From a virus: a DNA stretch of 64,000 nt. The notes under the pieces were generated by a model, which saw nothing but the letters and a program-made list of their open reading frames with translations, made no database searches and was not told the origin of the DNA. This document shows, in pieces, positions 7,798 through 63,741 of the stretch. The translations under genes were made by a program, and so were the position numbers. The stretch lies in the IMG/VR virus record IMGVR_UViG_3300034033_000050. One strand, given 5' to 3'. How positions within the stretch are numbered: position 1 is the first letter of the stretch; each line of letters opens with the position of its first letter.

Positions 7798-7889
7798 TCC
7801 AATCACCACTAATATAATTACTAGATTATAGGCATGCCACAACCCCATAAAAAAACACTTTCATTTATAAGTAAAGTCACATATAATTA

Positions 7890-7964
7890 GCACTCTGCTG
7901 AATAAGCAGCTTAGAAAATAATATTTATAAAAATCCATTTACTGCTGAATAAGCAGCTTAGAAA
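7890..7964 (+). CRISPR. cas-less type I-F-like mini-array: two 28-nt repeats, one 19-nt spacer
   Basis: Repeats 7890-7917 and 7937-7964 share the identical 23-mer CTGCTGAATAAGCAGCTTAGAAA; the second matches the I-F consensus GTTCACTGCCGTATAGGCAGCTTAGAAA at 23/28 with a compensatory C-G to T-A stem change; TATAAT at 7882-7887; terminator at 8000-8025. Confidence 0.8.
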
Positions 7965-7999
7965 GTTATAATTATATTATTAACCACCCAATAGGTGGC

Positions 8000-8025
8000 A
8001 AAACCCGTTTTATAAACGGGTTTTT
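8000..8025. terminator. bidirectional intrinsic terminator
   Basis: AAAACCCGTTT-TAT-AAACGGGTTTT, T-runs on both strands. Confidence 0.8.
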
Positions 8026-13896: not shown

Positions 13897-15846
13897 TCAA
13901 ATCTCGCAAGAGTCATTTGAACAGAATCGGCTCTCATAACCATCAGAACCAGTAAAAGAACTCCAATCAATATGACCCAATGCTTTTTTGCGCTTGTCAT
14001 ACTCTGCTTTATCGATTCGTGAATATGGCATTTGAGGATATTCGCCCTCATCGCTATGGGGCAACATGCTTACTGACTTAATTAAAGGTGCGAACTGAGC
14101 CAACATTCTTTCAACTTGCGGTCCTTCTTTTACCTTATCGAAGTAAACAGTACATGACACCATATTATCTGACCATTCTCTTTGAAGCTGTGCAAGTAAT
14201 GCAAACTGCTCCCAAGCACTGACATCCGAAGCCTGTCGAGTATCACCTTGATCAATAGGAAACTCAAATACTTGAGTATTAGTACTAACAACATCAGGCT
14301 CATTTGGAACCCCTGCATCCATAAGGACTTTACAAATCGGACTGTTTTGTGCAACTCGCATGCGTCTAATGGCATATTTAAAAGTCGGATAATGAAGCCC
14401 CGAAGAATTTCCTGAAAGCAAACTAATCGTGCCTGAAGGTTTAACTGTAGTTACTCTAATCGAGGCAGGCACACCAGCCTCAGCAGCTAATTGTGCATTT
14501 ATACGTCTAACCAACTTATAACCCTTTCTTAATCTTTTGGTTAACTCAGCTGCGCTTATAGTGACAAGATAATCAGCAATGCCCGACAAGCTTACGCCAA
14601 TCCGTCTGTTTCTAGCAATAACAGCATTAGTTTCTGCCCTATGACATGGTAACAAAGCAACAGTTGATGAATAATAGGTTGCAAACTCGATTGCCTTATA
14701 AAATATTTCCTCAGATTCACATCTTGTAGGAAAAACCTCAGCCAAATTACACAACTCCTTGTTCTCCAGACCAATCTCACCACACGGATTACATAAAGTA
14801 GCCTTATCAGGCATTTCCTGACCATAACGGCCATATTTTTGCATATTGATTAAATTGCAAATTCCAGGCTCACCATTATCAACAATCCTTTTAGCTATTT
14901 TATCCAATCCTTCAAAATGTTCTGGTTTAGATAAAATGGCGGTATTATTACTAGTCCAGCCATAATTCATCCTCTCAGGATTGATTTCATAGTTTTTTAA
15001 ATTTAGGAAAGTTTCATCATCTGGACTGCCCAAACATATTTCTGCGCTTCTTCGTACCCCGCCAGAAATGATCATTACACCAACTTTATTACAGATATCT
15101 GCAGTAGTTCTAGATGCATCATATTTGCCCGTGCTGTAATCATCTAATGATTTTTCAATAGAAATATGGCAGTCAATCAATGGCTGAGGCCCACTCGCAA
15201 TTCCACCAAATCCCTTAATAGGAGCACCATAGGGCCTTATTGCAGAATAATCAAATTTATACCAGTCACCATGCTTTGTATAGCTCTCAATTAGCAACCT
15301 TACACTCTCAACCCAACCCTCTCTAGAATCAGGAATAACAAAGTCAATAGGCTTAGTTTTATCAACAGGATTAACCTCGCCTCGCCACGCTAAATTGAAT
15401 CCTACACCGACCCCACACATAAGTCCATCGCACAACCAATCTACTGCATCACTCAAGTCAGTAGTATCTACAGCCCCACAATTATTAAGAGCCATACTGC
15501 CTTTTTTATAAACCATCTCGGTACCCATGGAATATAATCCGCGACCTGGTGGCAAGAACTCCATCCTAAACATTGAGGTTGCAAGTGCGCGAGCAAATGA
15601 TTGCTTTTCACTATCAACAAATCCCAAGCCATTATTAAGATAATGATTTTTACGAATGGACATAACACCTTCGACAACTCTAATTATGGTATCTGCCCAA
15701 CATTCCTGACCACCATCACTCCTTAAGCGGCTGTAGGTTCTATAATAAGTTGCCTCTCCAAAACCATCAAACCCAAATTTTACTTTTAGGCTATGCAAAT
15801 ATTCTTTTGTCTCATCTGACAATTTAAATCTGTGTTTAACTAACAT
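13897..15846 (-). CDS. nrdJ: class II (AdoCbl-dependent) ribonucleotide reductase, monomeric RTPR-like
   Basis: GGVRRSA, NPCGEI, CNLAE, TTVKPSGT motifs and C-terminal FCSNDSC cysteine pair. Confidence 0.9.
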   Translation of the reverse strand: MLVKHRFKLSDETKEYLHSLKVKFGFDGFGEATYYRTYSRLRSDGGQECWADTIIRVVEGVMSIRKNHYLNNGLGFVDSEKQSFARALATSMFRMEFLPPGRGLYSMGTEMVYKKGSMALNNCGAVDTTDLSDAVDWLCDGLMCGVGVGFNLAWRGEVNPVDKTKPIDFVIPDSREGWVESVRLLIESYTKHGDWYKFDYSAIRPYGAPIKGFGGIASGPQPLIDCHISIEKSLDDYSTGKYDASRTTADICNKVGVMIISGGVRRSAEICLGSPDDETFLNLKNYEINPERMNYGWTSNNTAILSKPEHFEGLDKIAKRIVDNGEPGICNLINMQKYGRYGQEMPDKATLCNPCGEIGLENKELCNLAEVFPTRCESEEIFYKAIEFATYYSSTVALLPCHRAETNAVIARNRRIGVSLSGIADYLVTISAAELTKRLRKGYKLVRRINAQLAAEAGVPASIRVTTVKPSGTISLLSGNSSGLHYPTFKYAIRRMRVAQNSPICKVLMDAGVPNEPDVVSTNTQVFEFPIDQGDTRQASDVSAWEQFALLAQLQREWSDNMVSCTVYFDKVKEGPQVERMLAQFAPLIKSVSMLPHSDEGEYPQMPYSRIDKAEYDKRKKALGHIDWSSFTGSDGYESRFCSNDSCEI

Positions 15847-15910
15847 AATTATTTCCTCTAAATTAACAATCCATCATAAACCAACTACAAATTCACAGTA
15901 ATGAGCCCGA

Positions 15911-16348
15911 CTACAAACGCTCAATACAGCTCAAGCCATCGCTTTCACTCTTTAACCACGAATAAATCCCACCCCATTCATTAGCCCTCACTTTAAATAA
16001 TTCTAAGTAACCATCTGAACTACACCTCTCAATATGCACCGCCCACCTACTTTTGCTTACCACACCATAAAACATCACCTCATCATCCTTGTGGGCCCGA
16101 TATACAAACCCACAAAGCTTCATGGCAACTGACACCATAGCTTTACCTTGTTTAAAATCATTCTTAAGTAAGTAATCAGACACGAATTTCAATCTATCGA
16201 CAAAATCCAACTCCATAAACACAGCATTAAACGATTCATCGCCGCCATGTTCAAAGGTATGAACCAAATCAGAATAAAAATCTATTGGGAACTCAAAGCC
16301 ACCCGATTCAACTCTGTTTTTGACATCCAAGGTACTCACGCCGCGCAC
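15911..16348 (-). CDS. hypothetical protein
   Basis: Intact ORF in array. Confidence 0.65.
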   Translation of the reverse strand: MRGVSTLDVKNRVESGGFEFPIDFYSDLVHTFEHGGDESFNAVFMELDFVDRLKFVSDYLLKNDFKQGKAMVSVAMKLCGFVYRAHKDDEVMFYGVVSKSRWAVHIERCSSDGYLELFKVRANEWGGIYSWLKSESDGLSCIERL

Positions 16349-16635
16349 CTGTCAACATAAGTACTAGAATGAACACTTGGAGTGAATGATTTGGTCAAAT
16401 AATTCGCTTGTTCTAGCTCGCTCAATTCGTCTTCAGGAATGATCTGATAATCATAAACATCATCACTACTGAAAGTGAATCTTTTGGTGCCGTCACCGTT
16501 TTCGATATATTCATATTCATTTATATCGGCTATTAAATCATTTCTGACATAGTGCGGTCCGTTATACATAGGCAAACGCATGATTTCGTTTGAAGGGGAG
16601 AGAACATAAAAAGCACTAGCCATAACAATCACCAA
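16336..16635 (-). CDS. hypothetical acidic protein
   Basis: ORF with motif promoter at 16653. Confidence 0.7.
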   Translation of the reverse strand: MVIVMASAFYVLSPSNEIMRLPMYNGPHYVRNDLIADINEYEYIENGDGTKRFTFSSDDVYDYQIIPEDELSELEQANYLTKSFTPSVHSSTYVDRCAA

Positions 16636-16677
16636 ATTTAATAAGATGAAATATTATAGCTTTGCTCAGATTTGAGT

Positions 16678-17595
16678 TTATGCACCAACCAAAACAGGCG
16701 GAAGCCATTTATATATGAATTTACGTGGAATTTGCGTTTCGGTTTTTGAACCAGTCCAATATCCATGCCAATGAGCTTTGCGCACATGTGCTCTTTTTGT
16801 ATGGGGTAAGGAATGTTTAGTCCCTGTACCGAGATTATTTTTAATTATTTGACCGATACCATCCCCAACATTATAGACAATAGGTTTTGGTGCTGGGAAA
16901 AATCTAAGACCTTTTTTGGTCTTTTTAGCAGCTGGCACCGATGGCTGTAAAGGCCCATAATCAGGCTCTTCACTGCACAAATACAGCACAAGATTCACCA
17001 ACTGATTAATATCATGCGAGGATTGTTCTATGAAAGAAGAGGGCGCCTTGAAGGTTCCTTGGCTATTTTTAGATGCAATTCTAGAATATTTTTCAATGGC
17101 TTCAGTTATTGTCCAATCACCCAAATGAATAACAGCAGTTGTTAGGGCGTCATAACTACCATCATCAATTAGAAAACGCAGCTCTATGCTGCCATTGTTC
17201 ATATCTTGTTCGATGAAGACAAAAAAACCAACAGCCTCTCGATTTAGGTAATTGAACTCGTGGGGGATATAGCAGCACCAATGCGGCAATCTGGTTAAAA
17301 CATCACAGGGTAAGGCACCAGAAAAAGGGGTTTTAATCAATTCATTTTTAAGAATATCATCAAATTTGAATATGCCTTGAGTCATGCGCCAAGAGCCCAG
17401 GCCTGCAAGTTTACCTGCTTCACCAATATCATCAAGTGTTGGATTATTTCCGCCACTAGCAATAGCAATCCAACCAGCAATTGGCAAAAAACAAAAGGGT
17501 TCCCAGTGCGGCATATCTGGATCACAGCGAAAACCTTCTGCTTGTTTCCAAGCATCAGGAAACCTCTTTTTTGCCTGTACTATGTATTCAATCAT
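16678..17595 (-). CDS. acrVA2: AcrVA2/FinQ-family protein
   Basis: WRMTQGIFKFD, LPHWCCYI, LVLYLCSEEPD and PHTKRAHVRKAHWHGYWTG match AcrVA2 as recalled (WRNTLGIYQLD, LPDWCVYV, YLLWLCVAEPD, PHTKRPHIRRGHWHGYWQG). Confidence 0.75.
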   Translation of the reverse strand: MIEYIVQAKKRFPDAWKQAEGFRCDPDMPHWEPFCFLPIAGWIAIASGGNNPTLDDIGEAGKLAGLGSWRMTQGIFKFDDILKNELIKTPFSGALPCDVLTRLPHWCCYIPHEFNYLNREAVGFFVFIEQDMNNGSIELRFLIDDGSYDALTTAVIHLGDWTITEAIEKYSRIASKNSQGTFKAPSSFIEQSSHDINQLVNLVLYLCSEEPDYGPLQPSVPAAKKTKKGLRFFPAPKPIVYNVGDGIGQIIKNNLGTGTKHSLPHTKRAHVRKAHWHGYWTGSKTETQIPRKFIYKWLPPVLVGA

Positions 17596-17599
17596 CTGA

Positions 17600-18067
17600 T
17601 TAATTTAAAAATAAACTATTATTAACCAGAGCTCTTTTATTATCAAGCCTTTGCGCTGCAGTAATAAGCCCACTTGATGAAATTGATTTCAGTTTCATTT
17701 CATTTCTATTACGTACAACAATCCTATCAATATGCTTATTGATGTAGCCAGTCATGTCAATTGATTGTATATCACTAACATAGCAAGCAGATTTGTCTTC
17801 CAACGGATAACCAGCCTTTTCAAAATTAACATGCATTGGTACAAATCCCGGTGGTAAAACCTGCATGCAGTCATGCCCAGAATCATCCCAATGAATATTA
17901 GTTATGGGCTTTAAGGCATTTTCTACTTCCGTTTCGGAATTAAAAAAACCAATACGTTCATCCAAACACAACACCCATTTACTTGTATCATTGGCAGTTC
18001 TAAATGCCTGACAATGTTTATTTGTTAAACTCTTACTGTCACAGCCATTGTTTATTATTTTCATCAC
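17600..18067 (-). CDS. hypothetical protein (155 aa)
   Basis: Intact ORF directly upstream of the AcrVA2-like gene in the same operon. Confidence 0.65.
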   Translation of the reverse strand: MMKIINNGCDSKSLTNKHCQAFRTANDTSKWVLCLDERIGFFNSETEVENALKPITNIHWDDSGHDCMQVLPPGFVPMHVNFEKAGYPLEDKSACYVSDIQSIDMTGYINKHIDRIVVRNRNEMKLKSISSSGLITAAQRLDNKRALVNNSLFLN

Positions 18068-18073
18068 CGCCTC

Positions 18074-18286
18074 CTAATGCATAGTTACACTTGAGCGTTC
18101 AATGATCTGAACACCTGACAAATGAGGATTAACCAAATTCTTTTTCTGCAATCGACACTGGCCTTTATTCTCTCCCTTGTACTCACTGTAACCAACAAAA
18201 TCAGTCACAGTTTCGCCAGTAACCACCATCACCATTTTATTTGATAGCAGTCGCGTGCCAATCGTTATTTCATTTTCAATGTTCAT
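18074..18286 (-). CDS. hypothetical protein (70 aa)
   Basis: Start overlaps the upstream stop codon. Confidence 0.65.
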   Translation of the reverse strand: MNIENEITIGTRLLSNKMVMVVTGETVTDFVGYSEYKGENKGQCRLQKKNLVNPHLSGVQIIERSSVTMH

Positions 18287-18492
18287 TATTTACCTCTAAT
18301 CCCATTACGTCTCTGATTATACGATGACGAAAATCCCCTGGGCACAGGCACTGACCTTGATAACGATTTTACGCCCTTGCTAACACCAAATAACTTAACA
18401 GGTTTACACAACTTAACCAATTCACTAAAATCATACCTGTAATTATAAATATAAGCAGTAGACATCAAACCAATACAAATAGAATTCCTCAT
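18286..18492 (-). CDS. hypothetical protein (68 aa)
   Basis: Motif promoter at 18523, GAGG RBS. Confidence 0.65.
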   Translation of the reverse strand: MRNSICIGLMSTAYIYNYRYDFSELVKLCKPVKLFGVSKGVKSLSRSVPVPRGFSSSYNQRRNGIRGK

Positions 18493-18695
18493 TGCAAAAC
18501 CTCAATTTCATCATAAAAACCCATTATAGGTGTGCTAAATATTTAGTTAATTGAAACATTAATTTCAGACAAATGCTTATCAAGATTGGCAGACTCTTTT
18601 TTAAGTTCTTTATTTGTTGTAGAGCTACAATCAGTGAGTATTTTTGTAAACTCTCTAACATTACAAATAAATCCAACAATTTAATGTGGCTAAAA

Positions 18696-21023
18696 TTATT
18701 GTGAAATCACTCCAAGTATTGTTTTTCGCTCCAAGACTTCATGTTGAGTACAGGCTCTTTTAAACGCAGCTTCTTCCCCCACAATATATGCCATTTGCCG
18801 TCCTCTAGTAAGCGATGTGTACATTAAACAGCTAGACAACATCTTAAAAAAACTCATACTTAAAGGAAGCAAAATTGATAAAAATCCAGAGCCTTGCGAT
18901 TTATGGCAAGTGATTACGTGGCCCAATGTTAGCATACTTTCAATGTCAGATTTGTCATATCTGACAACCACTTCTTCGGCCGGATAATACGCCCATAATT
19001 TGAACTCATCTATATCAACTTTAATAACAGCACCAAGATATCCGTTGAATATTCTCTTTTTAGAATCATCAGGTACTTCTCTATTTGGTTCCTTGTTAAA
19101 CTCATCAATTGACATAACAGGCATATTAAAATTCTTTGTGTGTAAAACCTTATCCATCTTTTTAAAAAGAACCGTATTACCCATTGAATTAACAGAAAGT
19201 GCTACGCCTCCTGGGTTCAATGTATTCTGAATGGTTTGATTTAAATTATCCACTCCCAAAATACCTTTTTTCATTGGAACTATGACTTGAGTAGAATATA
19301 GAAACTTCTGAAAATCTCCTTTTTCAAATGCATCATTGAGCATCCCTTTTTTATTTTCAAATGCTTTTGCTACATGTAAGCAAATACGCATATTGTTATC
19401 ATTTCTCTGATTAGCTCTAACGTCCTTATCTCTGGATGGATTATTAATATTAAATGGCGCAAATGCAAAATCAGCATGTCTTGTATGATATTCAGGCACT
19501 TGGCCATTTCTTATCTTTTCTGCGTGTAGGGCGATCACTGAGTTCTCAGACTGTCTGTGGATCGTTTTAAGTTCAAGCACTGGCACTAACTTATTTTTTA
19601 TAACGTCAATAAACACAGCGCCTGCAGCAAGGGCGGGTAATTGAGATGGGTCCCCGACCAACACCAATCGCGCATCGGGATGAAGCTTACGCAATAACCG
19701 AGCAAATAAAACACTGTCCAACATACTGCACTCGTCAATTACTAAAACTTTAAAAGGAATGGTAGCTTCCTGCTTATATTTAACAAGTATAGACATAATT
19801 GTACCACCATCAAAACCACTTGCATTTTTAATCTTATCAGCAGCAATACCAGATAACGCAGTAACATATACCGAATCACGCGTGTAATAAGTTGAAAGAA
19901 GCTCCAATATACCCCTGGTAGTAAAAGTCTTACCGGTTCCTGCATAACCCACAAGCGCCATTATTTTGCGCTCATTTATAGCACGTATAGCACGCACCTG
20001 ATGAGAGTCATATTTATGCCCAGCTTTCTTTTCAAGACCAGCAATAAAATTATTCATTTTCTTTTCATTAAGCACAGGGAATATCATTTCATTACTGCGA
20101 CTATTGAAAAACTCATATAAAAACATTTCAGCATCATACAAACTTTTAAGACAATACATGTCGGCATTAAGACAGACAATCTTTTTTGTGTTTATCAATT
20201 TCTTAAGCGCAGCTTGGTAATCAAAACAATCCCTTGATGTCGTGCCTTTTGCAAATCGAATTAATAAATCATCAAGAATCTTATAGAGATCTATTTTAGA
20301 TACGATACTGTGCCCGTGCTCTTGACCAATCTGCTTAAGGCCATATATGACAGCACTGGAAATTCTAAAGATGGAATTAGGTTCAACCATTCCAGACTCC
20401 AAGGCTACTTCATCCAAGCCAATAAAGCCAATTCCACGAACATCGGTCAATAGATAAATGTTTTCATTAATCCTTCTAGCAATCCCTTCAATATCCTCTA
20501 GATAGTGCATATAGACGTTATTAACCTGGATTGGGGAAAAGCCCAGGGGTAAAAGTAGTTCGGAAATCTCTCTCATAGCAATATGCCTGTGCCATGAAGC
20601 GCATATAGTGGCCACCAAGGCTTTGTTAAATCCTTTCACATGCAAAAGCTCGTGAGGGCGATTTGCTATCATATCAGCAATTTTATCAGCACCAAAATGA
20701 TCTAATAAGTACAAAGTCTTTTTGGGCCCCAAACCTGTCACAACCTTGGTTAGAAAATAAAATATTGTGTCAGAACCAACAATCTCAATGGTTTGAATTT
20801 GTATTTGTAAATCTTTTGTTTTTTTATTTTCAACCCAGTGGCCAGTGACAGAAACATTCTCACCTTTTACCTTGTCAATGTTGCCAAGAGTGTGTTGGCC
20901 AAGAATAACCGTACCATTTTTAAGTTTCAAAATAGCAAAGTTATCTTTTTTATAAATAATGGTTTCAACAACCCCTTTTTGTTTAACTGTTTTACCCATG
21001 CTTGATTTTATATTTTCAGACAT
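18696..21023 (-). CDS. recD2: RecD2-like SF1B DNA helicase
   Basis: GYAGTGKT, VIDECSM, GDPSQLP, HRQ, TCHKSQG; N-terminal OB and HhH (GLG, GIG) regions. Confidence 0.88.
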   Translation of the reverse strand: MSENIKSSMGKTVKQKGVVETIIYKKDNFAILKLKNGTVILGQHTLGNIDKVKGENVSVTGHWVENKKTKDLQIQIQTIEIVGSDTIFYFLTKVVTGLGPKKTLYLLDHFGADKIADMIANRPHELLHVKGFNKALVATICASWHRHIAMREISELLLPLGFSPIQVNNVYMHYLEDIEGIARRINENIYLLTDVRGIGFIGLDEVALESGMVEPNSIFRISSAVIYGLKQIGQEHGHSIVSKIDLYKILDDLLIRFAKGTTSRDCFDYQAALKKLINTKKIVCLNADMYCLKSLYDAEMFLYEFFNSRSNEMIFPVLNEKKMNNFIAGLEKKAGHKYDSHQVRAIRAINERKIMALVGYAGTGKTFTTRGILELLSTYYTRDSVYVTALSGIAADKIKNASGFDGGTIMSILVKYKQEATIPFKVLVIDECSMLDSVLFARLLRKLHPDARLVLVGDPSQLPALAAGAVFIDVIKNKLVPVLELKTIHRQSENSVIALHAEKIRNGQVPEYHTRHADFAFAPFNINNPSRDKDVRANQRNDNNMRICLHVAKAFENKKGMLNDAFEKGDFQKFLYSTQVIVPMKKGILGVDNLNQTIQNTLNPGGVALSVNSMGNTVLFKKMDKVLHTKNFNMPVMSIDEFNKEPNREVPDDSKKRIFNGYLGAVIKVDIDEFKLWAYYPAEEVVVRYDKSDIESMLTLGHVITCHKSQGSGFLSILLPLSMSFFKMLSSCLMYTSLTRGRQMAYIVGEEAAFKRACTQHEVLERKTILGVISQ

Positions 21024-38373: not shown

Positions 38374-39084
38374 TTATTTGTTAATATGCCTCTTTTCCTC
38401 ATTAATTAGATAATTAACTAAATGAGGAACACCAGTTGTTGCCACAGATTTGTTTAAAGACATATTTGTAATTCCATTATTTTCAGCATTTGGATCAATA
38501 TAATAACAAGGAGATATTCCTTTTTTGTAGTGCAAAAGACTAGCTGCAGGAAACACCTGCAAAGAAGTACCTACAACAATGAGAATATCAGCATTTTCCA
38601 CAAGCTGTGCCGCATACCCAAACAAAGGCACTTCTTCACCAAACCATACAATATTAGGCCTTAATTGAAACCCGTCAACGCCACAATCACCTAAATTTAA
38701 GTCACTATAGCCAATATCATAAACATCTTGCGAGTTAATATTAACACTTCTGGCTTGAGTTATCATTCCATGTAAGTGGACAACATTAGAAGAGCCTGAA
38801 CGCTCATGTAAATCATCAATGTTTTGCGTAACAATTGCAACATCAAACAATTGCTCCAACCTCGCTAAAGCAACATGCGCCTTATTTGGGGCCGTGTTAG
38901 AAATCTCATTTCTTCTTTTATTATAAAACCCTAAAACCAAACCCGAATTTTCATTCCACCCATCTACACTTGCCACTGTGCGAACATCATGCTTAGCCCA
39001 AAGGCCATTTCCATCACGGAAAGTTTCAATCCCACTTTCGGCGCTAACACCCGCTCCAGTCAACACTACAATATTTTTTATCAT
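38374..39084 (-). CDS. cobB: NAD-dependent protein deacylase (Sir2/CobB, no Zn cysteines)
   Basis: GAGVSAESG, TQNIDDLHE, HLHG, RPNIVWFGE, GTSLQV. Confidence 0.9.
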   Translation of the reverse strand: MIKNIVVLTGAGVSAESGIETFRDGNGLWAKHDVRTVASVDGWNENSGLVLGFYNKRRNEISNTAPNKAHVALARLEQLFDVAIVTQNIDDLHERSGSSNVVHLHGMITQARSVNINSQDVYDIGYSDLNLGDCGVDGFQLRPNIVWFGEEVPLFGYAAQLVENADILIVVGTSLQVFPAASLLHYKKGISPCYYIDPNAENNGITNMSLNKSVATTGVPHLVNYLINEEKRHINK

Positions 39085-39157: not shown

Positions 39158-39646
39158 TTAAAAAGGCTGATCCATATCTGAATCAAAATCATCAAAGCTA
39201 GGCGTTGAAGCTGGAGCTTGTGGAGCTTGTGGAGCTTGTGGCTGTGGAGCTTGTGGCTGTGGAGCTTGCTGATTACTACCACCTCTTGGCTGCCCACCTT
39301 GGGCTGAGCCATTGCCTGAATTACCAAGCATTTGCATCTCATTTGCCACAATTTCGGTAGTGTATCGATCAACACCATTTGCATCAGTCCATTTGCGGGT
39401 TTGATTTTTACCCTCAATTAGCACCTGACTTCCTTTTTTTAAATACTCTCCAGCAATCTCAGCCAACCTACCAAAAAACACAATTTTATGCCATTCGGTT
39501 TTAACCTTATCTTCACCGGTACTCTTATCTTTCCACGACTCTGATGTTGCTACTGATATATTTGTGACCGCAGCGCCTGCCGCAGTATATCTCACCTTAG
39601 GATCTTCCCCTAAATTACCAACCACAACTGTTTTAGAATAACTCAT
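39158..39646 (-). CDS. ssb: single-stranded DNA-binding protein
   Basis: OB-fold motifs [22 protein letters not shown]; PQAPQ linker; acidic tail ending DQPF. Confidence 0.95.
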
Positions 39647-40831: not shown

Positions 40832-41728
40832 CTACAAATCCACCGAAACATGACCGCCTAAAATACCAACATCAGAAACAGATTGTACGTTTTTCAATTG
40901 GTCGTCAAAAAAAATATCTGCCCCAAAAGCTTTTACAAACTCACCTTTATCTAAGCCACCCAAAAACACAGATTCATCCATCCTTAAACCCCAATGCCTT
41001 ATAGTTTTTAGAACCCTTTTGTGGGTTGGGCTACAGCGAGCCGTTATCATACAAGTACGAATTGGCACATCATCAATCCCAAAACAAGATTGAATATCAT
41101 GCAAACCAGACAAAAAACCTTTAAACAAACCATCTTCTAATGGCACGTTTTCATTTGCGACTTCGTGTTCTGTAAAGGCTTTTAATCCACCTGACTTAAA
41201 AAGACTTTCAGAAGCACTAGAGAACAATACAGCATCACCATCAAAACCAATTCTCAAGGGCTCATCATCACACTCATTAGAAACAAAAGACCCATCAACA
41301 CGTAAATGCGCTGCCGCTATACCATTATCAAGACAGCTTTTAACTTCCTTGGCATGGGCTGACAAAAACAAATCAACACCATAAGCTTTAATGTATTCAC
41401 TTCTTGAACCACCTTTAGTAAAAGCACCTTTTTGAATATTAAGTCCATAATGTTCAATTGAATTAAAAATCCGTAAACCAACATCACCATGATTCCTAGA
41501 AACCATCACCACTTCAACTAAGGCATCCCCAGTAACAGGGCTTTTAATATTTAGAAGTTTTTCCACAATCCCAAATGCAACTCCCTTTTTGAGAATTTTA
41601 GTTTCGTTTTGAATTTGATAATCCCGATATTCATCCACTCCTTTGGATAAAAATAATTGATGTTCACTATCAAGATTAAATAAAACCCTTGAACTTACCG
41701 CTATTACCAATTTTGACATAATATTCAC
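40832..41728 (-). CDS. 5'-nucleotidase (cN-I-like family)
   Basis: LVIAVSSRVLF, LRIGFDGDAVLF, ITARCSPTHKR, IFFDDQ. Confidence 0.85.
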   Translation of the reverse strand: MNIMSKLVIAVSSRVLFNLDSEHQLFLSKGVDEYRDYQIQNETKILKKGVAFGIVEKLLNIKSPVTGDALVEVVMVSRNHGDVGLRIFNSIEHYGLNIQKGAFTKGGSRSEYIKAYGVDLFLSAHAKEVKSCLDNGIAAAHLRVDGSFVSNECDDEPLRIGFDGDAVLFSSASESLFKSGGLKAFTEHEVANENVPLEDGLFKGFLSGLHDIQSCFGIDDVPIRTCMITARCSPTHKRVLKTIRHWGLRMDESVFLGGLDKGEFVKAFGADIFFDDQLKNVQSVSDVGILGGHVSVDL

Positions 41729-41739
41729 CTATACTTGAT

Positions 41740-42252
41740 TTAAGATATTATATGAATGCCAAGAATCCGCATCAAATGCAAGGCTTGAGATTTAGCATCA
41801 TTCAAAGCATTATGCTTTTCCCCATACATTTCAAATTCTTCATCAAGCATCAACTTACAAGCAGTTCGATAACAACAATTATTATGATAGTCCCAAGGAA
41901 CAACTAACCCCAATTGTTCATAGGAGTTTCTTAGTATTACGTTGTCAAAATCAGCGCCATTACCCCACAACTCATCAATATCTCCAGCCCAAACAGAAAA
42001 CTCAACCAAGGCATCCTTAAGGCTCTTAGGTTTATCAAATAAAGCATTGCGAACACAATCATTTTGCTCCATCCAAAATTGGATACACTTACCATCAATT
42101 TGCGAACCTGATTCTAAAGAGCTGCTCAAATCCACATTAATATAAAATTCATCAAGAACGTTCGTTGAATCAAATTTCACAGCTCCGATTGAAACAATAG
42201 CGGCATTACTCTTTGTGCTAAAAGTCTCCAAGTCCAACATTATTTTATTCAT
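41740..42252 (-). CDS. DEDDh 3'-5' exonuclease (Rv2179c/phage type)
   Basis: MLDLET, WGNGADFDNVIL, HNALNDA. Confidence 0.85.
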   Translation of the reverse strand: MNKIMLDLETFSTKSNAAIVSIGAVKFDSTNVLDEFYINVDLSSSLESGSQIDGKCIQFWMEQNDCVRNALFDKPKSLKDALVEFSVWAGDIDELWGNGADFDNVILRNSYEQLGLVVPWDYHNNCCYRTACKLMLDEEFEMYGEKHNALNDAKSQALHLMRILGIHIIS

Positions 42253-59447: not shown

Positions 59448-60632
59448 TTAATCCCATTTTAGTGCCGTTTTGGAATAGTCGATTACGGTCGTCTCAAAAA
59501 AATTTTTCTCCTTACGAAGATTGGCCTGTTCATCAAGCCACGGTAAAGCACACTGCGCCCCAGGGAAAGGTTCAGAAAATCCCAAGCTTCTTGCTCTTCT
59601 ATTGGCTATATATCTAGATTGTTCAATATGCTCTAAAGCTGAATAGCCTAAAATCGGTTTTTTTAAAATAAAATGGGCATAAGCAGACTCAGCAGCATCT
59701 GATTCTTCCCACATGTTTTTAAGTGCTTTAGGCTCAAGTTTGATGTCATTTTCAATGAATATTTGTTTAATAACACGTATACCAAAAGATGCATGCATGA
59801 CTTCATCACGCATAATATATTGAAATTGCTGGCCTGTGGCTGCCATCATTCCCCTTCTTTGAAGAGAAAATATAGGAGAGAATCCGTTATAGAACCAGGT
59901 TCCTTCGAAGATAGCAGCAAAAAATATATAGGCCATAATAAATTCATGAAGATCATCTTTATTAGTTAGATCCATATTAGATTTCAATACAGAATCAAGT
60001 CTACGATTAGCAATTTGAATTTTTCCATTTATAGCTGGCACAACTCGATAACGGTTGTAAATCTCTCCCTGGTCTAGTCCGATGGTTTCGATACAATGTT
60101 GATAGGTCCATGTATGTAACGCTTCTTCATAGACTTGACGTGCTTGATAAATTTGAAGTTCTGGAGCAGTCATTTTTTCCATAACAGCCAAACCAATATT
60201 GCGCATAGCTAAAATATCAGACGTGGTAAGATATGACAGAACATTTTCATAAACATGTCGCTCATCATCATTAAGCTTATGGTAAAAATCAGAAACATCT
60301 CCAGACATTTGAATATCTAAAGGGGTCCAGTGATTTGAATTACTATTGAGAAAATACTTCCATGCCCAAGGATATTTAAATGGGGCTAATTGGTTAATAT
60401 CAGATGTTCCCCCAACAACTCTTTTGTCATCAGGATTAATGGGTACTACTCCTCCTTCAACAGAACTCCTTTTATTTGCATCCTTAAATTTATCAGGAAT
60501 TTCTGTAATAACATCAACATTCTTTTCAGGTGCGTCTTTTATATTTTGTTTTGGAGGTTCAATATTGTTTTCAGTCTGAGGCTTATTTAATCCTTTTCCT
60601 AAAGGATCTGCCCATGTTTTAGTTAGGTTCAT
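59448..60632 (-). CDS. nrdB: class Ia ribonucleotide reductase beta subunit
   Basis: D..EEALH...Y radical site, EG..FY, DEVMH, C-terminal NFFETTVIDY; Pseudomonas-type QLAPFKYPWAW. Confidence 0.92.
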   Translation of the reverse strand: MNLTKTWADPLGKGLNKPQTENNIEPPKQNIKDAPEKNVDVITEIPDKFKDANKRSSVEGGVVPINPDDKRVVGGTSDINQLAPFKYPWAWKYFLNSNSNHWTPLDIQMSGDVSDFYHKLNDDERHVYENVLSYLTTSDILAMRNIGLAVMEKMTAPELQIYQARQVYEEALHTWTYQHCIETIGLDQGEIYNRYRVVPAINGKIQIANRRLDSVLKSNMDLTNKDDLHEFIMAYIFFAAIFEGTWFYNGFSPIFSLQRRGMMAATGQQFQYIMRDEVMHASFGIRVIKQIFIENDIKLEPKALKNMWEESDAAESAYAHFILKKPILGYSALEHIEQSRYIANRRARSLGFSEPFPGAQCALPWLDEQANLRKEKNFFETTVIDYSKTALKWD

Positions 60633-62082: not shown

Positions 62083-63741
62083 ATGATGAAAAAAAAAGAT
62101 AAAAGGAAAAAAATGTTAAGCAAAGAAGAAGAAGAAAAAGAACGCATTAAAGAAAAGCTTAAAAAGCAATATTTAGAATCAGCGGAAACTGAGTATGATG
62201 ATAATGAAAAAGTATCTAACAGTCTTCTTGATACTCCTTCCATGATAAATGCTCAAGCAAATAATATAAATGAACAAACCAAATTTGATGACGTAGACAT
62301 TGATGATTTATGTGAGATAGGTGAATCCAAAAACTTAAATTTAGATGATTACGAAATAATCACAGATACTACAGCATACGAAGATTATGGAATAAAACCA
62401 TTTGAACATTTCGGGAATAAAAAAGTTGCTATAACAGAAGAAATTATAAACAAAAACAGATTGATCCAAACCGAAAGGAGTATAGAAAGGTATGTAGGGC
62501 AAATCTTTCCATCAAATAAATCAGAAAGATTAAACAAGGAATACAGCAAGCAATGGCCAGTAAAGGCAAGACATAAAATTTCTGGAAAAGTCATAACTGT
62601 GGGAACCCAAGGAATAAAGATAAAACCATCGCTTGATAAACTTCGGTATACCACAGAGACATTGAAAATATATTGGGCACTAATATTTTTGTGGAACGCA
62701 AATGGCTGTCCAGAAGCTAATGTTGAGATTGAAAGCAATTTAAGTGATCTTTGTAAAATACTAACCATCGAAAAAAATGGGGAAGTATATAAAAGGCTAA
62801 TCAAAGAATTATATTGCCTTAAGGAGACAAGTTTAGAATTCTTGCGCTCGTTTGAAGTAAAGGGCGGGGAAAAATACAAATCCAGAAACATAAATATATT
62901 AACTGAATTCAATCACAATTATCGTGAGAAAACACAAAATAAATACGAAAAAGCATTAGAATTAGACAAAGAACACCAAAGCAAACAAAAATTTTCTTTT
63001 AAATTCAATTCTGACATTATTGAAAACCTCAAAAACAAAGTAACAATCCCGGTTAACCTAAAAGTATTGAATTCAATTCGGTCATCTATTGCTCAAAGCA
63101 TGTACACAAAAACCAACAAAATATTAATGTGGCGGTATAAAGAAGCACTGAGAGGGGGGATAGTAGACTATGAAAATACAGCGCGAAGAATTGTTGGAGA
63201 AATAGGATTAAAACAAAAAAACTATAAATACCCATCAAGAAGAAAAGCATTAATAAATTTAATAGTCAAGGCTCTTGATGGAAAAGAATTAACACAACCA
63301 GGCTACACAATAAAAGCAGAATTATTTGATGCTGCAAACATGGATTACAAAGTAAGATTTACTTTGGTTGTGGATAAAACTAAAATAAAAAAATCAAATA
63401 GGCCAAAAGTTATTAATACTGATCCTGATGTAATAAGGACAATTATAGATAGAATCAAGGAATACATTCAACCAAAAACTAACAAAGATGATGACGCATA
63501 TAAGATTTATGCACAAGTTTATTCTTATGATCTTATTAATGTAGCTGTTGGCCAAGCTAGAGAAAAAGAAGAATATTTAAAAACAATAGGCAATGAAGTA
63601 ACTAATAGAGGCGGCTGGTTTTCTAATACACTTCACCAAGAAGTTCATAAAAAAAGGCTTAAATGGATTGATGGATGTGATGATAACAATGAAAGTTGTC
63701 CAATTTTAAAAAGATTAAAAAATGAAGGTTACATAGTCTAA
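62083..63741 (+). CDS. putative plasmid replication initiator (winged-helix Rep) with acidic N-terminal extension
   Basis: Adjacent to iterons and the AT-rich tract; LKIYWAL...LSDLCKIL...YKRLIKEL..L...F pattern typical of Rep winged-helix proteins. Confidence 0.7.
   Translation: MMKKKDKRKKMLSKEEEEKERIKEKLKKQYLESAETEYDDNEKVSNSLLDTPSMINAQANNINEQTKFDDVDIDDLCEIGESKNLNLDDYEIITDTTAYEDYGIKPFEHFGNKKVAITEEIINKNRLIQTERSIERYVGQIFPSNKSERLNKEYSKQWPVKARHKISGKVITVGTQGIKIKPSLDKLRYTTETLKIYWALIFLWNANGCPEANVEIESNLSDLCKILTIEKNGEVYKRLIKELYCLKETSLEFLRSFEVKGGEKYKSRNINILTEFNHNYREKTQNKYEKALELDKEHQSKQKFSFKFNSDIIENLKNKVTIPVNLKVLNSIRSSIAQSMYTKTNKILMWRYKEALRGGIVDYENTARRIVGEIGLKQKNYKYPSRRKALINLIVKALDGKELTQPGYTIKAELFDAANMDYKVRFTLVVDKTKIKKSNRPKVINTDPDVIRTIIDRIKEYIQPKTNKDDDAYKIYAQVYSYDLINVAVGQAREKEEYLKTIGNEVTNRGGWFSNTLHQEVHKKRLKWIDGCDDNNESCPILKRLKNEGYIV

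Follow-up and report, generated by a model that had tools for sequence, protein, structure and literature searches.

An AcrVA2/FinQ-family gene at the end of a four-gene unit on an element rich in counter-defence-type genes

The DNA analysed here (the window) is a stretch of 64,000 nucleotides from IMG/VR virus record IMGVR_UViG_3300034033_000050. On its minus strand, positions 16678..17595 hold a 305-aa open reading frame (start ATG, stop TAA), whose product, P0001, is a member of the AcrVA2/FinQ family (PF26125, AcrVA2-like). The gene is the last of a unit of four (68, 70, 154 and 305 aa) on this strand. The unit presumably starts at a promoter-like site at 18523..18550 (minus strand) which includes a GC-N5-TATAAT motif. 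An earlier sequence-only reading of this DNA had placed a promoter at 18523, and this was borne out by TTAACT-16-TATAAT at 18550..18523. The first two reading frames of the unit (68 aa, 18286..18492; 70 aa, 18074..18286) overlap by one base, and a GGAGG site lies upstream of the third, a 154-aa frame without a family match (17600..18064). The stop codon of this third gene lies 4 nt ahead of the ATG of the AcrVA2-like gene and this ATG has no Shine-Dalgarno site of its own, so translational coupling of the two genes is likely. The end of the unit is marked by the next GC-N5-TATAAT motif, which lies at 16653..16665 on the minus strand, 13 nt past the AcrVA2-like stop codon. In the whole window, the more general motif GY-N5-TATAAT occurs at 43 sites versus 9.9 +/- 3.4 expected, 40 of the 43 being on the gene strand. 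These sites are mostly intergenic (e.g. 18523, 16653, 21186 and 12795) and support an element-wide promoter type.

The absence of an Aca-type HTH gene from the operon, also part of the sequence-only reading, is upheld: the five small proteins encoded nearby matched no Pfam or NCBIfam models, HTH models included, and three of them had no PHROG match either, with the proviso that a very divergent HTH could escape these scans. Among the same five neighbours, the Pfam and NCBIfam scans revealed no acrVA1-like or aca gene adjacent to the AcrVA2-like gene, and no second AcrVA2-like copy was found in the window.

Four genes have counterparts in a related element, L002, at identities of 75% for the RecD2-like helicase, 76% for the 70-aa frame, 45% for the 68-aa frame and 74% for the AcrVA2-like gene. 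The 154-aa gene is not conserved there. At L002 5717-7569, an unrelated 255-aa gene and about 1 kb without open reading frames take its place, and from these sequences the position looks like a swap hot-spot beside a conserved gene. When the genes upstream of the AcrVA2-like gene were compared between the window, L002, a Methylobacter plasmid and a Pectobacterium plasmid, no homology was found between the 154-aa frame and the upstream genes of the relatives. The AAA protein encoded upstream in the Methylobacter plasmid was considered as a counterpart of the RecD2-like helicase of the window and is not the same protein. Furthermore, all open reading frames within 6 kb were clustered for 80 loci of the clade to which P0001 belongs, and no family was present in more than eight loci. 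The recurrent neighbour families of these 80 loci (ParA, ParB, integrases, MobC/NikA and SNF2) constitute a mobile-element backbone. Since no other neighbour family recurs, the AcrVA2-like protein appears to need no dedicated partner.

The element around the unit is, within the window, a nearly one-strand gene array rich in counter-defence-type genes. It encodes a class II ribonucleotide reductase, the RecD2-like helicase, a remodelled element sigma factor, an ArdC-like protein, two orphan-type methyltransferases (one C5 and one N6/N4), an SPFH protein and a cell-wall hydrolase. The array resembles anti-defence islands and phage early regions; anti-defence islands are known from plasmid leading regions (PMC11541004). 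A run of four genes, in the order Sir2-family protein (38374-39084), SSB (39158-39646), 5'-nucleotidase (40832-41728) and Rv2179c-like 3'-5' exoribonuclease (41740-42252), may represent a nucleotide- or NAD-related counter-defence block. The class II (B12-type) ribonucleotide reductase is located at 13897-15846, and a class I small subunit lies 44 kb away (59448-60632); none of the scanned open reading frames encoded a recognisable class I large subunit. Among the scanned frames of the window, which represents 64 kb out of a contig measuring at least 143 kb, none gave a Pfam or PHROG match to a transfer gene. The phage collection contains no near match to the region 14000-20000. A plus-strand 552-aa protein (62083-63741) is a candidate replication protein. 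It has no Pfam match and no tblastn match in plasmids or phages, and if it is a replication initiator it would be of an undescribed type. Lastly, two copies of a 23-nt unit are found on the minus strand at window positions 7882-8025 (plus-strand reading CTGCTGAATAAGCAGCTTAGAAA). Its sequence is similar to the hairpin and handle of type I-F CRISPR repeats, which suggests a host with type I-F CRISPR-Cas.

The assignment of P0001 to its family is supported at the level of sequence, profile and fold, as the sequence-only reading had proposed. The comparison with AcrVA2 and FinQ which that reading had called for returned the AcrVA2 entries 7CI1/7CI2 at E 5.6e-18 in a phmmer search of all PDB sequences, with no other notable match, and, by tblastn, the annotated finQ gene of hundreds of IncI-type plasmids at 27.9% identity (E 2e-12). 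In PHROGs, P0001 matched phrog_6160 over nearly its full length (E 1.6e-53). Overall, its identity to AcrVA2 and FinQ is 21-28%. Tblastn against plasmids matched 749 records, 613 of them conjugative. The 60 phage records matched include Moraxella catarrhalis phages, Erwinia, Klebsiella and Serratia jumbo phages, and a Shewanella phage in which the gene bears the annotation AcrVA2. Local Pfam and NCBIfam scans gave no match to P0001. The same local Pfam copy was blank for unmistakable members as well, and PF26125 "AcrVA2-like" is present as a precomputed annotation on the exact P0001 protein and on all listed homologues; the model is therefore taken to be absent from the local copy, and the empty scan is not counted against membership.

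Four blocks are common to P0001 and AcrVA2 in the HMMER alignment to 7ci1_A, namely GSWRMTQGIFKFD, LPCDVLTRLPHWCCYI, LVLYLCSEEPD and the C-terminal PHTKRAHVRKAHWHGYW. The open reading frame and the four AcrVA2 motif blocks, noted in the first reading of the letters, are thus confirmed, and the sharing is far beyond chance. The C-terminal signature of P0001, PHTKRAHVRKAHWHGYWTG, spans residues 264-282 (P264-G282; codons at 16750..16806, minus strand) and includes H270-x-R272 and H275. It is invariant or near-invariant also among the 35 homologues on which the structural model was built.

This AlphaFold2 model has a mean pLDDT of 92 and a pTM of 0.89. Foldseek against the PDB returned only the three AcrVA2 chains of 7CI1/7CI2 (E 1e-16, TM 0.66-0.70), the next match being at E 0.09. 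VIA-align against 48,161 representative chains gave AcrVA2 at Z 22.9 (rmsd 3.6 A over 262 residues, model positions 1-304). Other folds were considered for P0001, and the top non-AcrVA2 chain in VIA-align reached a Z of only 3.8. In the model, the three-domain AcrVA2 fold is present over the full length of P0001 by both Foldseek and VIA. The modelled N-terminal domain is structurally homologous to that of AcrVA2 though not alignable by sequence.

The functional residues of AcrVA2 have been delineated by mutagenesis: down-regulation requires H286, R288 and H291, with a contribution from W79 and D89 (Marino et al., bioRxiv 10.1101/2022.11.29.518452). Chain numbering in 7CI1 equals the numbering of that paper plus 1, which held for seven of seven residues checked. 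On this basis W69, D79, H270, R272 and H275 of P0001 correspond to W79, D89, H286, R288 and H291, and all five are kept. W69 and D79 delimit the motif WRMTQGIFKFD, encoded at 17359..17391 on the minus strand. In an alignment of 253 clade members, W69, H270, H275 and H277 are kept in 100% and R272 in 99% of the sequences. P0001 departs from the 80% consensus of this alignment at ten positions, eight of them conservative; P32E and E105H are the exceptions. With its key residues kept and so few departures, P0001 looks intact and functional. In addition, the protein P0002 of L002, the 74% orthologue, is of equal length with all motifs retained, which argues for purifying selection on the gene.

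A profile search of 1.84 billion representative proteins retrieved 5,896 clusters at E <=1e-3 and 2,300 at E <=1e-30; the family size of about 5,900 clusters is counted at 50% identity. By its sequence, P0001 is an ordinary additional member of this large and already catalogued AcrVA2/FinQ family (PF26125). Its sole close relative is P0002, and the next relatives share 38-44% identity. In the maximum-likelihood tree, P0001 and P0002 pair up on a long stem within a large clade of plasmid/ICE type, which includes Methylobacter, Methylotuvimicrobium and Pectobacterium plasmid proteins and is found in at least 269 species genomes of many phyla, often on megabase-size contigs. The AcrVA2 proteins of Moraxella phage Mcat5 and Shewanella Y11 are grouped in a clade of their own with support 99, and P0001 lies outside it. 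Branches are long, so the deep order of the tree is uncertain, and the FinQ branch is too long to be placed. The separate clade and the identity of 21-28% set P0001 apart from AcrVA2 proper.

To our knowledge, no bacterial protein other than AcrVA2 destroys an mRNA upon recognising its nascent product, and targets are known for hardly any of its thousands of relatives. The studied members of the family let phages and plasmids silence one chosen gene through mRNA destruction during translation. AcrVA2 binds the nascent N-terminus of Cas12a and thereby causes a translation-dependent loss of cas12a mRNA; FinQ is its homologue, and the roughly 1,800 orthologues borne by mobile elements mostly occur in the absence of Cas12a (Marino et al., bioRxiv 10.1101/2022.11.29.518452). 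The mechanism and the kinship with FinQ had been stated in the same terms in the sequence-only reading, in agreement with this work. An editorial of 2026 summarising the published version adds that the C-terminal part of AcrVA2 associates with ribosomes and polysomes and that a host enzyme performs the cleavage (PMC13728456).

P0001 and AcrVA2, which stems from a Moraxella bovoculi prophage, share the full-length fold, the four blocks and the five functional residues. Both are encoded by stand-alone genes on mobile elements and measure about 300-320 aa. They differ in that identity is limited to 21-28%, the first 61 residues are not alignable by sequence and the two belong to different clades; moreover, P0001 has no acrVA1 neighbour and its related hosts give no sign of Cas12a. 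At the sites contacting the Cas12a 618-634 peptide, E98 of AcrVA2 aligns with K88 of P0001, and D129 lies in an insertion absent from P0001. The peptide contacts (E98, D129 and D195) are dispensable in vivo, as the triple mutant is active (bioRxiv 10.1101/2022.11.29.518452). Given this, and as E98 is not kept in the Moraxella phage Mcat5 orthologue, the idea of deriving peptide specificity from the 7CI2 contacts was dropped. The part of AcrVA2 which reads the Cas12a N-terminus has not been mapped experimentally, so the specificity of P0001 is not readable from its sequence. FinQ of IncI plasmids such as R62, R621a and pJIE113 is homologous to residues 69-304 of P0001 and has the same C-terminal HxR...HWH module; it is likewise located on mobile elements. 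However, finQ lies inside the IncI transfer region, between hok/dqlB and trbABC, whereas the gene of P0001 stands among replication and counter-defence-type genes. Closer are the plasmid and ICE members of the clade, for example those of Methylobacter sp. YRD-M1, Methylotuvimicrobium alcaliphilum 20Z and Pectobacterium plasmids, which share 37-39% identity with P0001 along the entire protein, N-terminal domain included. They too are single genes in variable neighbourhoods; in contrast, P0001 and P0002 are the separate long-stemmed pair and reside on an AT-rich element.

With its family membership, its full-length fold, all known functional residues and its operon anatomy in place, P0001 is best explained as an intact, stand-alone silencer of AcrVA2/FinQ type which would act on the mRNA of one nascent protein (probability about 0.7). 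By analogy with AcrVA2, the invariant C-terminal module (H270-x-R272...H275-W-H277) would dock on translating ribosomes. A short segment of a specific nascent polypeptide would be read by the N-terminal and middle domains, whereupon P0001 would trigger the destruction of the corresponding mRNA via a host enzyme. This mechanism is a prediction carried over from one distant relative at 21-28% identity. Most likely, the target is either a defence protein of the host or a gene belonging to a competing mobile element.

Cas12a is very probably not the target. No Cas12a (TIGR04330) was found in any of the 77 genomes carrying the 80 nearest loci. As a positive control, the same search detected Cas12a in one of 401 sampled Gammaproteobacteria (E 8.7e-176), so the search works; in view of this base rate, the result for the 77 genomes indicates that the clade is independent of Cas12a and does not amount to depletion. 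The hedged suggestion of a target other than Cas12a, made from the letters of the window, fits both this search and the separate clade. It is therefore very improbable that P0001 is a true anti-CRISPR against Cas12a, as AcrVA2 itself is. Common family, fold and functional residues speak for such a role, and AcrVA2 inhibits Cas12a orthologues which share only 35% identity (bioRxiv 10.1101/2022.11.29.518452). These points are outweighed by the distance between the two proteins in clade and identity, by the missing Cas12a in the nearest-relative genomes and its rarity in Gammaproteobacteria, by the occurrence of most family members without Cas12a (Marino et al., bioRxiv 10.1101/2022.11.29.518452), by the lack of an adjacent acrVA1-like or aca gene and by the pair of type I-F-like repeats, an indication of a host with that CRISPR type. 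At somewhat less than even odds, the target would be some other defence protein of the host. In this tentative reading, the clade would silence such a protein during its translation, for instance a type I-F Cas protein; the element seems to counter this CRISPR type by a crRNA-mimic mini-array as well. The repeat pair at about 7882-8025 makes type I-F Cas proteins a sensible first target candidate, as a lead only. If this proposal is true, P0001 would represent the first case of a new peptide specificity in an AcrVA2-family counter-defence protein, and the family would be a general scaffold for gene silencing by polypeptide recognition.

Two further roles would differ in what is silenced. As a fertility inhibitor like FinQ, P0001 would lower the transfer-gene mRNA of a co-resident rival conjugative plasmid and so protect its own element. 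Direct homology to annotated finQ, the mainly plasmid-borne clade with its 613 conjugative records among 749 matched, and nearest relatives beside ParA, ParB, MobC/NikA or integrase genes, or near tra genes in the Pectobacterium plasmid, are all consistent with this role; FinQ has also been reported to lower F tra mRNA (bioRxiv 10.1101/2022.11.29.518452). It invokes the same mechanism as the preferred explanation and departs from it in the target alone. The counter-defence and replication-like neighbours, the lack of visible transfer genes in the 64-kb window and the unsettled tree position of the long FinQ branch weigh against it, and we consider it rather unlikely, though still a serious contender. 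Silencing of a broadly conserved host gene or of a gene of the element itself, as a means of host takeover or of timing the life cycle, would explain why the whole length of the protein, N-terminal domain included, is conserved across many phyla, since a shared target could account for this. It would also suit a gene which stands between replication-type genes (the RecD2-like helicase and the class II ribonucleotide reductase) and is part of the backbone common to L002. However, such a role is without precedent in the AcrVA2/FinQ family, and toxicity would be the probable outcome of silencing a conserved host gene, at odds with the stable presence of the clade in chromosomes and plasmids; this is accordingly an improbable reading.

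The preferred explanation, a silencer of one nascent protein's mRNA, adds no new principle, as Marino et al. had already described the family and its distribution over mobile elements and put forward the idea of different targets (bioRxiv 10.1101/2022.11.29.518452). Being apparently intact, with all known functional residues and with clade hosts free of Cas12a as far as searched, P0001 is a reasonable candidate for defining a second target of the family.

Some AcrVA2-like proteins from other metagenomes (P0121, P0157 and P0220) carry N-terminal extensions of 180-230 aa; these have no Pfam match and thus give no hint of function. A further variation concerns the DNA next to the gene. In an NCBI metagenome assembly which holds a 99.9% identical copy (L001), about 211 bp corresponding to window positions 16467-16677 are missing at 2244-2251. 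This stretch lies directly downstream of the AcrVA2-like stop codon and includes the promoter motif at 16653 and the start of a 99-aa open reading frame.
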